Below, piece after piece: positions 24,001-33,000 of a stretch of DNA of 64,000 nt. The DNA is from Endomicrobiia bacterium (lineage in GTDB: Bacteria > Elusimicrobiota > Endomicrobiia > DTEH01). Position 1 is the stretch's first letter. The number at the start of each line of letters is the position of its first letter. Location of the stretch: NCBI GenBank assembly GCA_039630545.1, contig JBCNUU010000003.1:34582-98581 (forward strand), written 5' to 3'. Position numbers: made by a program.

Positions 24001-27000
24001 TTTGTTTTAAAAACAACCAGCTACCAAGTGATAAAAACGACACTATAACAATAAAAGTTTCACCGGCTGAAAATCCAAATAAATTGATTATTTTCACAAT
24101 AAAAGAAATTTTGCTTTTATATAAAAAAACAGTAGAAATTACTGATATAGCCACAAACACACAGGATACTATGAAAAAAAATTTTTTATATTTTAAAAGT
24201 TGTTCTATAAAAATTTCATATATCTGGATGAAGTTGTATCTAATAGATTCTTTAATGTCATGTAATGTATACATTTTGATATAGTCTTGTTTGTTTTTAT
24301 CTACACCAAGAAAAGATTTTATCTTTGTATTTTTACCTAACCTATATTTTTTATATACAATTTCTTTTTGTGAAGAGGTGAGATAAAGCAAAGAATAAGT
24401 TAAAAAAAGCAATAGAATAATGATTGCTGTTCTCATTGTTTATTTCTGTTTACTTCTACATATCCAACTACCTTGCTTACAGGCTGTACAAAAGCAATGC
24501 CCTGGCCTGGTTTATCAAGATTAGCTGCTTTTACAATAACATCTAAAATTTTTTGTGTTTCTTCTTTTTTTGTTATAATAAAAGCTACTTCTTTTTCTGG
24601 TTGAATTATAGTCCCTAAAAGTTTTAGACGTTCTCTTACACCAGTTCCTCTTGCAAAAAACATTGTGGCACCTGCTGCACCTGCATTTAGTACTTCTTTT
24701 ATTACTTTATCCATTTTACCTCGTTGAACCACGAAAGTTATTATTTCAAATTCATTCATATTGCCCTCCCTAGGTCTAAACTAAAAATCCGTTTAACTTT
24801 CTTTTTATTAAAATATAAAAATATAAGCTATTTTACAATAACTTAATTTTTGGATTGTAACCTCTTGACATACTAAATGGAGTTTTATAAAATTTTTAAT
24901 ACCACACTGGTGGGGGAAGTGAAGGTGAGATTCCTTCCACTGCCCACGCAACGGTAATCTCTGTTGTAAAAAACAGAGGAGTCCGGTCTATCACCAGTGG
25001 TAGGAAGTACCTACGTTGGGTGGGGAAAAATAATGAAAAAGATAACCCTATCTGTTCACTCATCGTATGTACTTCCTTTGATTTTTTTATCTCTTTCAAA
25101 GTATTTATGGTTAATAAACTAGAAGTAAAACTTTTAAGTTTTACTAAAAATGCTTTATATGTGATTTATTCTTCATTTAGACAGTGCTATTCTGCCCTTA
25201 CTGCAGAAGAGATTTTTAAGAAGTGTTTAAAAGAAAAAGAAGACAAAAAGTACGAAGATTTTATTAGAAAACTTATAGATTCTGGTCATGAAAGTCCTCT
25301 TGAACATGTAAGTTTTACTTTTTCAATAAGTGGAGTATCAAGAGCCCTTACTCATCAGTTAGTAAGACACAGAATTGCTTCATATTCCCAGCAGAGTCAA
25401 AGATATGTTAAAATGGAAAATTTTGAATACATTGTTCCCCCATTAATAAGTTCTAATGAAAATCTTAAAAAGGAATTTGATAATTTTATGAAAGAGGTTC
25501 AAAAAAAATATGATTTTTTTGTTAGGGAGTTAGAGAAATTAGGTAAAAAAGGAGAGGAAGTTTACCAGGATGCTAGATATATTTTGCCACAAGCTACAGA
25601 AACAAAGATAGTAGTAACTATGAATTGTAGGGAACTTTTACATTTTTTTAGAGAAAGATGTTGTAGTCGTGCTCAATGGGAAATAAGAGAGCTTGCAAAC
25701 AAGATGTTAGAAATTTGTAGGAAAAAACTTAGAGTCGTTTTTGAAAAAGCAGGAGCAAAATGTGTCAGTCTTGGTTATTGTCCAGAAAACGAAAAATTTA
25801 GTTGCGGCAGATATAAATTAAAATAAAAAAAATTTTATCAATGGAGGTTAAGTATATGGTTAAATTTGTTTTGTATCTTTTAAGATGGCAGTTGAGTACA
25901 CCTATTTTGTGGCTTGTAGTGAAAAATTTAGGTACAGGTATTGGCGCTACAATTCTTGCTAATTTGATTGGTGGTAGTATATTTTTCTGGGTTGATAAGT
26001 TTATATTTACATCAAAAGCAGTTGAAATGTGGCACTTTAAGGAAAAAGGTATTTGTGACAATTGTGGTAAAGAAACTTCATTATGGAGATTGGTTTTAGC
26101 ACCAGGTTATGATAGAAGAAATGCAGAGCCAAAATATTTCTGTTTGGAATGTTCAAAGAAAAAAACAGATGAGTTGAGGAAAAGAGGCATACCTATAAGA
26201 GGAAGAAGTTATTGAGTTTTTATATAAAAGGGAGGAAAAGTAAAATATGGAAAAAACAATTTTTGAAGAAACAATACTGTTACAGCCCAGGTTTAGGCAT
26301 ATAATAAAAAGAGATGGCAGAGTTGTAAAATTTGATTCATCTAAAATCACAAATGCCATATATAAAGCTGGAAAAGCGACAGGAGAGTTTGGTGAAGAAA
26401 TTGCTAGAAATTTAACCATTAAGGTTTTAAATTTAGCAGATTTGTCTGGACTACCGGACACACCAACAGTAGAACAAATTCAAGACATAGTTGAAGAAGT
26501 TTTGTTGTCTTCTCCTTTTAAGAAAACAGCTAAAGCTTATATTCTTTATAGACAGCAACATAAAGAAATAAGAGAAATTTCTTCTAAATTTAGTGTAGAA
26601 CTTATAGAAAAGTATTTAACTAAAAAAGACTGGCAAGTAAAAGAAAACAGCAACATGAGTTTTTCTCTACAGGGTCTTAATAACTATATTTCTCAGGAAC
26701 TAACAAAAATTTATTGGTTGAATAAAATCTATACTGAAGATATTAAGTTTGCTCATTTAGAGGGAGATTTTCATATTCATGATTTAGGTGTATTAAGTGT
26801 TTATTGTGTTGGGTGGGATTTACAGGACTTATTAACTGTTGGGTTTAAAGGAGCAAAAGATAAAGTTGAATCAAAACCACCAAAGCATTTTCGTTCAGCA
26901 TTAGGACAAATCGTTAACTTTTTTTATACTTTACAAGGAGAAGCTGCAGGAGCTCAAGCATTTTCTAACTTTGATACACTACTTGCTCCCTTCATAAGAT

Positions 27001-30000: not shown

Positions 30001-33000
30001 AGAAGAACTTAAAAAGATTAAAAAACTAATCCTAAAAGAAGAAATTTATAATGATTATTGCGATTTAGAAAAAGTTATAAGTAAGTATGAAGATGAAGAA
30101 ATAAAAAAAAGAGTAAAAAACTTATCACGAGATGACTTTATAAAGAAAGTTCCCTATATAGATAGAAGAGAAATACAAAAAGATATTTTAAATTTACCTC
30201 TATTTCCTACAACTACAATAGGAAGTTTTCCTCAAAGTGAAGAAGTTAGAAATAAAAGGAATGAGTATATCAATGGTAAAATTTCTTACGATGAATATGA
30301 AAAGTTCATATTTAATCAAATAGATAAACTTATTGAATATCAAGAAAACTTAGGGTTAGATGTATTAGTACATGGAGAGTTCGAACGTACAGATATGGTT
30401 GAGTTTTTTGCATTTAAGATGAAAGGATTTTTGACTACAAAAAATGGATGGGTTTTATCTTATGGTACAAGAGTCTACAGACCGCCTATAATATATTCGG
30501 ATGTTTCACGAAAAGAACCTATGACTATAAAAGAAATAACTTATGCACAATCTAAAACTAAAAAACCAGTAAAAGGAATGCTGACAGGTCCTGTTACTAT
30601 GCTGGCATGGAGTTTCCATAGAGAAGATATTCCTATTCATGAAGTTGCATATCAAATAGCGTTAGCATTGAAAGAAGAGATAGAAGATTATGAGAAAAAT
30701 GGAATAAAAATAGTTCAAGTAGATGAGCCTGCTTTTAGAGAAAAAGCACCTATAAAAAAAAGAAAATGGAATGAATATTTCGAATGGGCAGTAAAAGCAT
30801 TTAACCTTGCTACAAATACAAAACCTGAAACACAGATTCATACTCATATGTGTTACTCTGAATTTTCTGAAATTATAAAATATATAAACTTATTAGATTT
30901 TGATGTAATAACAATAGAAAGTTCAAGAAGTAAAGCAGAAATAATAGATGCCTTTAAAGATATTAACTTCGAAAGGCAAATAGGGATTGGTGTTTGGGAT
31001 ATACATTCACCATCTAATTTAGATAAAAAAGAAGTTTTTCAAATAGTAAATAGAGTTCTGAGTGTTATACCATACAAAAATGTATGGTTAAATCCAGATT
31101 GTGGTCTAAAAACTCGTCGTTGGGAGGAAATAGATCAACCTTTGCAAGTAATAATAGAGGTGGCTAATATTTTAAGAAAAGAGTTTAAAGATACTTAGTG
31201 GTTATTCATCTTGAGGAACTATATTAGCCAAAGCAGCAACTTTGTCACCTTCATCTAACTTTACTAAACGAACACCTTGTGTGTTGCGAGATAAAATAGA
31301 GATCTCATCGACTTTTAGTCTTAAGCTCATTCCTTTTTCAGTCATTATCATAATTTCATAGCCAGGATTTGCAACTTTTACTCCTACAACTTTGCCATTT
31401 CTTTGTGTAGTTTTTATGTTTATTACACCTTTACCACCGCGACTTTGTAATCTGTAGTCGTCAACTTTTGTCCTTTTACCATAACCATTTTCACAAACTG
31501 TAAGAAGGATATCTTCTTTTTTTACTACTTCCATACCTACAACTTCGTCATCTTTTGACTTAAATCTTATTCCTACAACACCTTTGCCTGTTCGTCCAAT
31601 AGGACGAACTTTGTCTTCTTTGAATCTTATTGCAAAACCATTCTTTGTTGCGATAAAAATGTCTGATTTACCATCGGTATGTTTTACATCTATTAAGGAG
31701 TCATCTTTGTCAAGATTTATTGCTATGATTCCTGTTTTCCTTGGATTTGAATACTCAGAAAGATTTGTCTTTTTGATGATTCCTTTTTTAGTGCACATCA
31801 AAAGATAAGAGTTGTTATCAAATTTGTCAACTGCAACACAAGCAGTAATTTTTTCATCCATACTTGAAAGTTGTATTAAGTTTACGGCAGCTTTTCCCTT
31901 TGATATTCTTGAACCTTCTGGAACTTCAAAAACTCTTGACCAGTAGACTCTTCCTTTATTTGTGAACCACAGAAGATAAGAATGTGTGTTTGTTATTATT
32001 AGTTGTTCAACAAAATCTTCATCTTTAACAGTTGTACCTGTTATTCCTTTACCACCACGGTGTTGAGATTTATATGTTGAAAGCGGCATACGTTTTACAT
32101 AACCTTGATGAGAAATGCATACTACTACATCTTCTTCTTTTATTAAATCTTCAATTGTTAATTCTTCAGCACGAGCTACAATTTTTGTCCTTCTTTCATC
32201 GCCATATTGTTCTTTAATTTTTTTAATTTCTTCTTTTATTATATTATCAATTTTTTTAGGATCTCTTAAAATTGATCTTAAAAGTTCTATTGTTTTAATA
32301 AGTTCAAGATACTCTTGTTCTAATTTTGTACGCTCTAAAGATGTAAGTTGTTGTAGCCGCATATCAAGGATAGCTCGTGCTTGTATTTTTGTAAACTTAA
32401 ACTCATCCATTAAATTTTTCTCAGCAGTATCAACATCTTTTGATTCGCGGATGATTTTTATTACTTTGTTTAGATGTTCAATAGCAATTCTTAACCCTTC
32501 AACTATGTGTGCTCTATGTTCTGCCTTGCGCAGGTCAAAAGATGTACGTTTGTATACAATATCTCTTCTGTGGTCAATATAGCACTGTATCATTTCACGC
32601 ATATTTAGCACCTGAGGTTTTCCGTTTACTAAAACTAACATTATAACACCAAAAGATACTTCTAATTGTGTATGTTTAAAAAGTTGATTAAGAACAATAT
32701 TTGGATTACCATCCCGTTTTATTTCAATTACAATTCTTATGCCATCTCTGTCTGATTCATCTCTTAGATCAGCGATATCTTGAATTTTTTTCTCATTTGC
32801 CAGGCGTGCTATTGTTTCGAGAAGTTCTGATTTGTTTACTTGGTACGGGATTTCTTTTATTATAATGGCGTGTCTTCCACCTTTTAGTTCCTCAATTTCT
32901 GCTTTTGCACGAACCTTTATAGAACCTCTGCCAGTTGTAAAATACTCTTTAATTCCTTCTTTTCCCTGTATGATTCCTCCTGTAGGGAAGTCAGGTCCTT

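Follow-up and report, generated by a model that had tools for sequence, protein, structure and literature searches.

In an Endomicrobiia bacterium (genome G000, assembly GCA_039630545.1), the flavin-dependent thymidylate synthase gene thyX shares an operon with nrdD, nrdG and metE, which encode B12-independent enzymes, and this operon lies behind a compact cobalamin riboswitch. The window analysed comprises 64,000 nucleotides of contig JBCNUU010000003.1; other G and L labels denote compared genomes and contigs. That thyX and two B12-free back-ups lie behind it suggests that the main ThyA-fold enzyme of this organism, a short protein encoded elsewhere in the genome (here ThyA*), forms dTMP with a methyl group carried by B12. 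We lean slightly towards regarding ThyA* as a methylcorrinoid:dUMP methyltransferase and ThyX as its B12-free back-up, the operon being a low-B12 rescue kit. For the broader proposition of a third dTMP route beside ThyA and ThyX, which would take its methyl from a Wood-Ljungdahl corrinoid protein, need neither methylene-folate nor dihydrofolate reductase and serve many anaerobes among the Elusimicrobiota and Omnitrophota as their only thymidylate synthase, we consider the chances to be even.

According to the favoured interpretation, a bound cobamide would make the riboswitch halt transcription of the operon, and without cobamide three B12-free replacements would be expressed. NrdDG would take over from NrdJ, and MetE from a core methionine synthase that resembles MesB and would draw on the methylated corrinoid iron-sulfur protein (CoFeSP); ThyX would stand in for the housekeeping ThyA*. 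In the latter, Cys167 would attack C6 of dUMP, C5 would receive a ready-made methyl, its donor being methyl-CoFeSP or a different methyl-corrinoid protein, and an elimination step would release dTMP; as no dihydrofolate would be produced, FolA would be unnecessary.

The riboswitch leader and the operon

Features of the locus, in window coordinates:
24865..24893, + strand: sigma-70-type promoter just 5' of the first helix (11/12 consensus, 17-base spacer)
24901..25001, + strand: compact cobalamin riboswitch aptamer with closing helix, P4/P5 B12 box and short P6 extension
25003..25088, + strand: predicted expression platform with a P13-like hairpin (alternative pairings by folding)
25107..25826, + strand: thyX, flavin-dependent thymidylate synthase, 239 aa (TIGR02170, 195.5 bits against a cut-off of 87.9, full length)
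25856..26215, + strand: 119-aa orf of no known family, with a hydrophobic N-half and two CxxC pairs
26247..28382, + strand: nrdD, class III (B12-independent) ribonucleotide reductase (above the curated NCBIfam cut-off)
28379..28990, + strand: nrdG, activating radical-SAM enzyme NrdG2 (TIGR02495, above cut-off)
29021..31198, + strand: metE, B12-independent methionine synthase, last gene (NF003556, above cut-off)

The match to the Rfam family RF00174 of clan CL00101 (window positions 24921-24986, + strand) covers model positions 51-163, including the B12 box (P4, P5 and the P6 junction), and scores 22.2 bits, below the gathering cut-off of 31.5. This score agrees with the survey's finding; the E-value of 0.028 given there was not recovered, as we obtained 0.15 for the whole window searched with all families and 9e-4 for a one-family genome scan. 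Sister copies score 24-41 bits, each below its own cut-off. The leader folds with z = -4.0, and an alignment of six copies (the window, four genus genomes and the btu leader of G000) shows compensatory change at 15 of the 38 predicted pairs, with 96.9% of cells pairing. None of 500 shuffles matched this covariation and pairing; slid controls pair at 37-54%, a lenient comparison, since this very alignment had yielded the structure. All six copies are preceded by a -35 hexamer at the equivalent position, and the riboswitch element also heads btu/cob operons in G000 and G007. The riboswitch that the survey had placed before the operon is thereby borne out.

In the expression platform, one strand of the P13-like hairpin has two possible partners: the aptamer core, with which it could form 10 pairs (-19.6 kcal/mol), and a downstream strand, with which it could fold into a long hairpin ahead of a U-rich run. 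A simple terminator scan made no call at 25003..25088, and P13 shows no compensatory changes among the six copies. We infer from the folding a transcription off-switch.

The five genes follow each other with intergenic gaps of at most 31 bases, and ThyX, NrdD, NrdG and MetE each pass a curated NCBIfam cut-off, in line with their earlier identification. The 119-aa protein has no match in NCBIfam or Pfam and falls into unnamed Atlas clusters; it accompanies thyX also in G003, G004, G658, G359 and contig L373. The last gene, metE, converges on a gyrA-like gene (named by eye).

B12-dependent counterparts and the ThyA-fold protein

Both other functions of the operon have a B12-dependent counterpart in G000, a pattern suggesting the same for ThyX, whose counterpart the survey had not named. 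NrdJ is present, as the survey stated. Its description of MetE as a textbook back-up needs amending, the partner being not MetH but a MesB-like methionine synthase (G000:C45:130743-131795). Compared by eye with the residue list in PMC7857596, on which the assignment rests, this protein has the Ser, Asp, His-x-Cys, Asp and Cys motifs, comprising the zinc ligands His-Cys-Asp-Cys and the substrate Ser/Asp. CoFeSP is encoded in the genome. The MetH family PF02574 is found in none of the five family genomes, and an E. coli MetH query retrieves only AcsE. The PF02310 matches in G000 look like radical-SAM proteins and were set aside as evidence for MetH; blanks for PF01717 in four relatives were likewise not read as absence of a core methionine synthase, because that model only faintly matches MesB-like proteins. 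G000 also holds fhs, folD, metVF, acsE, acsC, acsD, acsB and a corrinoid-reactivase-like gene (several named by eye); given MetVF and AcsE and no MetH, corrinoid would be the main sink for methyl-folate.

The separate ThyA-fold gene noted by the survey encodes ThyA* (G000, C82:14467-15219). It scores 89.9 bits against the methanogen-type TIGR03283 (cut-off 174.55) and lies under every NCBIfam cut-off. Its AlphaFold model (pLDDT 91) is structurally closest to AfhB (Z 23.9) and MilA (21.6), followed by ThyA (19.9; 19-20 over about 203 residues for canonical ThyA). The literature searched yielded nothing on AfhB. Among 234 relatives of ThyA*, the dUMP site retains its Cys, Arg-Ser, Asn, His and Tyr in 96–100% of sequences, the Asn being the residue that selects dUMP in ThyA. 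Glu58, which ThyA needs for opening methylene-folate, is not kept, nor are His147, Leu172 and Phe176; about 18 residues are missing from the Trp80/Trp83 loop region and, in close relatives, about 35 from the C-terminal tail. Glu58, this loop, Leu172, Phe176 and the tail all serve the folate site in ThyA. The sole folate-site element retained is the equivalent of Asp169, whose role in ThyA is to bind the pterin ring; it is kept in 95–100% of the relatives. Judged by sequence and model, ThyA* keeps the dUMP-activating residues and lacks much of the folate site.

The ThyA* family comprises more than 7,500 sequence clusters, with relatives also in Desulfobacterota, Chloroflexota, archaea and viruses. 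The neighbourhood of ThyA* holds no corrinoid gene, whether searched out to 6 kb (80 genome loci) or to 4 kb (80 viral loci), and neither set contains a conserved partner gene. No fusion to a corrinoid protein was found among 40 long relatives, which are mostly intein-bearing, and the Omnitrophota ThyA* genes 10-25 kb from acsCD lie in a housekeeping block and not in an operon with them. The lack of clustering or fusion and the retention of the Asp169 equivalent count against the corrinoid reading.

Among 161 Elusimicrobiota, 13 of the 18 genomes with ThyA* have no thyX, which is present in 131 of the 143 others; among 150 Omnitrophota, both thyX and canonical ThyA are missing from 31 of the 43 genomes with ThyA*. 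The ThyA* count excludes G055, whose match lies on a contig of 1,177 bases, and G033, whose match is weak and partial, and such co-occurrence counts come from related, not independent, genomes. In family f18, thyX and ThyA* alternate within a gua/pur cluster, and in G107 ThyA* follows nrdJ. By its distribution, we infer that ThyA* acts as a dTMP synthase. In the 150 Omnitrophota, FolA accompanies canonical ThyA in 67 of 67 genomes and ThyA* in none of 43; it is also absent from the five family genomes, four of them with ThyA*, and two FolA probes found none within 4 kb of ThyA* in 80 viral loci. Conversely, CoFeSP occurs in all 18 ThyA* genomes of Elusimicrobiota and in 36 of 43 of Omnitrophota, against 0/67 genomes with canonical ThyA. 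Of the seven exceptions, the five examined all have a stand-alone corrinoid protein, a count made without a control set. ThyA* and CoFeSP may both simply mark anaerobic lineages.

Riboswitch-led thyX in other genomes

Within the genus, the riboswitch lies directly 5' of thyX in G003, G004 and G009, and in G007 it heads the operon btuFCD-nrdDG-metE-thyX-cob; G008 has a divergent thyX with no riboswitch ahead. All this matches the survey, save that the thyX genes of G007 and G009, described there as close, share 39-42% identity and belong to another ThyX clade. In other phyla, upstream riboswitches were confirmed in two Omnitrophota genomes; on Desulfobacterota and metagenome contigs thyX occurs in B12 neighbourhoods with the riboswitch only downstream.

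Riboswitch-led thyX was found in seven of the 64 thyX genomes whose upstream region was examined, and all seven also hold ThyA*: 7/18 genomes with both enzymes against 0/46 thyX-only upstream regions (G272, with thyX and canonical ThyA, was omitted from this table). The grouping of thyX with B12-free back-ups behind a riboswitch stands, although to call thyX a recurring member of B12 regulons is too broad, the arrangement being that of a minority. The seven cases span two phyla and three ThyX clades (in a quick tree where the long branch of G211 was mis-extracted and L254 is absent). The first gene is thyX in five of the seven operons, and those of G009 and G213 have no metE in the stretch read. 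Restricted to CoFeSP-positive genomes, the contrast weakens to 7/18 against 0/9 (one of the nine missing the DNA upstream of thyX), with p 0.06 and three or four independent events.

In 11 of the 18 genomes with both enzymes no riboswitch was found at thyX; in nine of the ten such Omnitrophota cases, thyX lies beside glycine-cleavage or lipoate genes (named by eye). Negatives from our custom riboswitch profile alone (eight Omnitrophota regions and one of Elusimicrobiota) are soft, since this profile, which gave two riboswitches of 57-88 bits only E 0.02-0.2, is less sensitive than Rfam. G243 and G245 keep metE-thyX, and neither ThyA*, CoFeSP nor a cobalamin riboswitch was found in them; in G219 a TonB receptor precedes thyX (the contig ends upstream), CoFeSP is present and ThyA* was not found. 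Among 400 Desulfobacterota genomes, 124 have thyX matches, and none of 30 loci with 1.5 kb flanks, nine of them viewed more widely, has an upstream riboswitch. In the Desulfobacterota genome G476, thyX in a B12 context occurs together with ThyA*; this co-occurrence is weak, as three of four other Desulfobacterota thyX genomes tested also have ThyA*. No clear upstream riboswitch was seen at 80 metagenomic thyX loci, many on short contigs and nine of them run through Rfam.

Alternative interpretations and known systems

In many genomes lacking a B12 switch, thyX lies among nrd, gua/pur, glycine-cleavage or acs genes; two contigs, L365 and L316, have it within acs clusters, so linkage to the Wood-Ljungdahl pathway is not specific to ThyA*. 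Such clustering, like the 11 genomes without a switch, would suit a view of ThyA* as an ordinary methylene-folate synthase working with a reductase other than FolA, and of thyX as a spare in a nucleotide/C1 cassette with nrdDG and metE, switched only because its neighbours are. The Asp169 equivalent points the same way, and since a repressed thyX is survivable only with a second synthase, this requirement alone would explain the constant presence of ThyA*. The reductase could, we assume, be the N-terminal extension of about 400 aa in the FolP of Omnitrophota; the FolP of G000, however, is a 283-aa frame with no extension. The missing folate-site loops and tail, the FolA contrast between ThyA* and canonical ThyA, the leading position of thyX genes recruited from three clades, and the expectation that a useless spare should decay make us regard this view as rather unlikely. 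The fold neighbours MilA and FAD-binding AfhB (functions according to PDB titles) raise a different possibility: ThyA* may act as MilA and the phage hydroxymethylases do, passing a hydroxymethyl group from methylene-folate to dUMP, or it may, as in AfhB, use a flavin bound in the folate site, a corrinoid or Wood-Ljungdahl step supplying the reduction and ThyX still being a true back-up. This too agrees with the Asp169 equivalent and, because a MilA-like reaction forms no dihydrofolate, with the missing FolA, but the loss of Glu58 and the lack of a conserved neighbour gene in either set of 80 loci render it distinctly improbable. It would also accommodate a result that counts against the corrinoid route, namely, according to PMC9931769, that dTMP was formed in Methanosarcina thermophila extracts from labelled formaldehyde with tetrahydrosarcinapterin, the enzyme not being identified.

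The survey itself had offered a guard against the methylfolate trap: without B12, methyl-folate would accumulate behind AcsE/CoFeSP, MetE would free it and ThyX would spare reduced folate, no B12 enzyme being replaced. The methyl-folate metabolism of G000 and the recurrent metE-thyX adjacency across genomes fit this. Yet it explains less, as ThyX itself consumes methylene-folate, the very pool that the trap would drain (PMC9931769), and the switchless CoFeSP-positive thyX-only genomes and the two operons with no metE seen also speak against it; we hold it to be very improbable.

Were ThyA* indeed a methylcorrinoid-dependent enzyme, a B12-dependent reaction of a categorically new kind would be added to DNA precursor synthesis, dTMP would be tied to the Wood-Ljungdahl pathway, and its large family would have to be re-annotated. 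Both known thymidylate synthases are held to use methylene-folate, and archaeal-type ThyA is barely characterised (PMC9931769, PMC9012536); how ThyA works without dihydrofolate reductase in anaerobes, a point noted for Desulfotignum phosphitoxidans in PMC4046663, is a gap in present understanding. Even if this reading of ThyA* proves false, thyX is a member of a cobalamin regulon, for which we found no report in print: titles and abstract openings (regulon databases and supplements lie outside this scope) mentioned neither thyX under a cobalamin riboswitch nor a B12-dependent thymidylate synthase.

Cobalamin riboswitches are known to control nrdDG or nrdAB as alternatives to nrdJ. They also control metE as the alternative to metH (PMC9600662). 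The present operon resembles such regulons in its RF00174-type 5' leader aptamer, its metE and nrdDG targets and their B12-dependent counterparts elsewhere; it differs in having thyX as a target, usually as first gene, in its compact aptamer scoring below the cut-off, and in the MesB-like partner of metE. The core methionine synthases MesA, MesB and MesC have, according to PMC7857596, lost the folate-binding part and are confined to Wood-Ljungdahl anaerobes; in vitro their methyl donor is methylcobalamin, in vivo it is probably CoFeSP. ThyA* is likewise predicted to be stripped of its folate part, and the same co-occurrence argument applies. In contrast to Mes enzymes, which rely on a zinc thiolate, it has the thymidylate synthase fold and would methylate a dUMP carbon via a Cys adduct; moreover, MesB is backed by biochemistry and some acsCD operons, whereas ThyA* is known here from genes alone, without such operons. 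With canonical ThyA (EC 2.1.1.45) and TIGR03283 it shares fold and dUMP-site residues, unlike them lacking the folate loops and C-terminal tail and never co-occurring with FolA in the genomes searched. The hydroxymethylase MilA and the FAD-dependent dCMP hydroxylase AfhB (PDB 5jnh and 9iqu), its best structural matches, likewise have this fold without folate hydride transfer, but they act on cytidine nucleotides, while ThyA* keeps the dUMP-selecting Asn and is encoded by a conserved housekeeping gene present in single copy.

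The thyX operon and its leader

The cobalamin riboswitch that the survey placed before the thyX operon is borne out by its Rfam match of 22.2 bits together with covariation over six copies. The score lies below the Rfam cut-off of 31.5, which we attribute to the compact build of the element and not to chance. Compensatory change is found at 15 of 38 pairs across the six copies of the leader, a level reached by 0 of 500 shuffles, and a like compact element heads the btuFCD-cob-btuB operon on another contig (C12) of this genome (G000). The survey's recurrence of the element in the genus likewise holds, as four genomes of the genus have it before thyX or btuF. 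The features concerned are as follows.

24865-24893, upstream of the thyX operon: sigma-70 site, 11/12 consensus
25107..31198, one strand: five genes, thyX, 119-aa orphan, nrdD, nrdG and metE, with intergenic gaps of at most 31 bases
25856-26215: the orphan beside thyX, with counterparts at L281:4474-4845, L282:4636-5007 and L373:6621-6992

The strand 3' of the aptamer can fold as a P13-like hairpin. It can also pair with the aptamer core, through 10 base pairs at -19.6 kcal/mol in five copies, or join a downstream strand in a long hairpin (6/6 copies). This long hairpin is followed by a U-rich run in the window copy, some other copies being poor in such runs, and was not called as a terminator by a simple terminator scan. 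In the simplest model, we infer a transcription off-switch upon B12 binding: in the cobamide-free leader the aptamer-core pairing would prevent the long hairpin and transcription would continue, and in the cobamide-bound leader the long hairpin would form and cause termination.

A phosphate uptake operon (17508-23589; porin-like gene, pstSCAB, arsC-like gene and phoU, named by eye) lies upstream of the leader, and a similar block stands before the riboswitch in genomes G004 and G213. In this genome and G007, a riboswitch-led cob salvage operon includes a diphthine-ammonia-ligase-like ATP pyrophosphatase, scoring below the cut-off (L005:11309-12034).

A candidate B12-dependent counterpart of ThyX

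NrdJ was found in this genome, and searches of it gave no match to MetH. It encodes a MesB-like core methionine synthase (C45:130743-131795), barely detected by Pfam PF01717, whose zinc and substrate residues, read by eye, are as given in PMC7857596, which also associates MesB with the corrinoid iron-sulfur protein (CoFeSP). This protein is probably the B12-dependent partner of the operon's metE. CoFeSP and the Wood-Ljungdahl methyl branch are encoded as well. In the fhs-acsB interval (C45:42460-44830), no long ORF is left and one 77-aa piece is CooS-like by eye; CO dehydrogenase thus seems to have decayed, with acsB, acsCD and acsE still intact, a pattern that suggests CoFeSP is used anabolically. 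Two of the three operon enzymes thus have B12-dependent counterparts; that of ThyX would be ThyA*, a 250-aa ThyA-fold protein (P0001). Among ten genomes of the family, ThyA* occurs in nine (87-93% identity) and thyX in six.

The predicted structure of ThyA* has the thymidylate synthase fold (pLDDT 91) and is nearest to AfhB (Z 23.9, rmsd 2.4, 203 residues), followed by MilA (Z 21.6) and ThyA (Z 19.9), the match stopping about 40 residues short of the ThyA C-terminus. In its relatives (120 close and 114 distant), dUMP-site residues are retained in 96-100% and the equivalent of Asp169 of ThyA in 95-100%; Glu58, His147, Leu172 and Phe176 are not retained. In ThyA* the region of Trp80/Trp83 is about 18 residues shorter. 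The dUMP-site and folate-site roles of all these residues are those we assume from ThyA. Many relatives (P0126-P0214) contain inteins, inserted close to the catalytic Cys and to the Arg-Ser motif; essential DNA-metabolism enzymes show such insertions too.

Among 161 Elusimicrobiota genomes, thyX is present in 136 and ThyA* in 18, 13 of which lack thyX. The 150 Omnitrophota genomes comprise 47 with thyX, 43 with ThyA* and 67 with canonical ThyA; thyX co-occurs with ThyA* in 12 and with canonical ThyA in one. The genomes with dihydrofolate reductase (FolA) coincide with the 67 that have canonical ThyA; not one of the 43 ThyA* genomes contains it. Viral relatives of ThyA* sit amid replication genes (near nrdJ in 4 of 80 loci), with no FolA match nearby in any of the 80. 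By this distribution, ThyA* is predicted to be a FolA-free thymidylate synthase. In family f18, a gua/pur cluster holds thyX or ThyA* in alternation, and the ThyA* gene comes after nrdJ in G107 and after folD in G016. Both phyla commonly encode ThyX proteins of about 500 aa in which the Thy1 domain occurs twice (G018, G013, G121, G111, G298, G217 and others). The queries used detected no thyX, ThyA or ThyA* in seven CoFeSP-positive genomes (G001, G067, G127, G014, G040, G297, G315), which may be incomplete assemblies or possess a further synthase.

CoFeSP accompanies ThyA* in 18/18 Elusimicrobiota (30/161 overall) and in 36/43 Omnitrophota (24/24 in one ThyA* subtype, 12/19 in the other), as opposed to 0/67 with canonical ThyA and 40/150 overall; Fisher values for this co-occurrence are overstated, as the genomes are kin. 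All five examined of the seven CoFeSP-less ThyA* genomes encode a stand-alone corrinoid protein of 210-220 aa. No operon or fusion of ThyA* with corrinoid genes was found in the genome loci, viral loci or long relatives. In four CoFeSP-less Omnitrophota (L222, L223, L225, L226), a 210-aa stand-alone corrinoid protein is fixed beside accD, and no adjoining methyltransferase gene was seen at these loci.

Occurrence of thyX under cobalamin riboswitches

Riboswitch-led thyX occurs in seven genomes (G000, G003, G004, G007, G009, G213, G237), all of which have ThyA*; these genes are spread over three ThyX clades in a quick tree, and thyX comes first in five of the seven operons. The operons of G213 and G237 are headed by tandem cobalamin riboswitches (L171:6875-7231, L172:418-771). 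No switch precedes thyX in 46 upstream regions from thyX-only genomes (20 of 131 Elusimicrobiota and 26 of 34 Omnitrophota; several shortened by contig ends), scanned by Rfam at its cut-off in 37 and by a pattern and custom profile in all 46. With only CoFeSP genomes considered, a switch lies at thyX in 7/18 with ThyA* versus 0/9 without it (p 0.06). Against a link between switch-led thyX and ThyA*, the other 11 genomes that possess ThyX and ThyA* together (G008 and ten Omnitrophota) show no switch at thyX; in nine of these Omnitrophota thyX adjoins glycine-cleavage or lipoate genes, named by eye. G219, where a TonB receptor gene precedes thyX near a contig end, has CoFeSP and no ThyA* hit, and may be a counter-example. 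G243 and G245 retain the metE-thyX pair; neither a switch nor ThyA* nor CoFeSP was detected there, which is what a back-up turned permanent would look like.

In the desulfobacterotan G476, which has ThyA* (as do three of four other Desulfobacterota tested), thyX lies with a homocysteine methyltransferase/MTHFR gene, a TonB receptor gene and a riboswitch downstream. Metagenome contigs show metE-thyX (L297, L314), TonB receptor-thyX (L304), cobA-thyX-mesB (L362) and thyX within acs clusters (L365, L316); L365:3408-13005 is a complete acs operon with thyX between acsC and a corrinoid-reactivase-like gene. An orphan of 119-124 aa, hydrophobic in its N-terminal half and bearing two CxxC pairs, adjoins thyX in Elusimicrobiota and Desulfobacterota, and all five tested genomes with it have ThyA* (G000, G003, G004, G658, G359). 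In two thyX genomes where ThyA* was not found, a purine-class riboswitch after nrdR (L232:7795-7896, L234:7760-7861) leads a run of nrd-thyX-guaB-guaA genes.

A possible methylcorrinoid route to dTMP

Once a Cys has added to C6 of dUMP, C5 becomes nucleophilic, a chemistry known from ThyA and from SAM-dependent C5 methyltransferases. ThyA* would use its Cys in the same way, and a methyl-cobalt donor would then yield dTMP in a direct step, neither a methylene intermediate nor dihydrofolate being formed. Such a donor would account for the lack of a folate site and of FolA, for the tie to CoFeSP and for a ThyX kept behind a B12 switch. With slightly better than even confidence, we favour ThyA* as a methylcorrinoid-dependent dUMP methyltransferase and ThyX as its B12-free back-up. 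That thyX hitch-hikes in the operon, ThyA* being served by an unknown reductase, is a rather unlikely reading, albeit one to be taken seriously. We regard as improbable a hydroxymethylase or flavin route for ThyA*, with B12 acting indirectly, and give very little credence to thyX as a guard against the methylfolate trap. Extracts of M. thermophila make dTMP from labelled formaldehyde and tetrahydrosarcinapterin by an unidentified enzyme, according to PMC9931769. Such a result is consistent with a methylene route in one archaeal enzyme at least, though ThyA* itself scores well below the methanogen-type thymidylate synthase model.

A literature search at title and abstract depth turned up neither a cobalamin riboswitch over thyX nor a thymidylate synthase that depends on a corrinoid. 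The regulatory logic of a cobalamin riboswitch over B12-free back-ups is already known; thyX as its target is new as far as this search reached. If the methylcorrinoid reading is true, ThyA* would be a third way to dTMP. The proposed enzyme would resemble MesB, which has shed its folate domain and works with methylcobalamin (PMC7857596).
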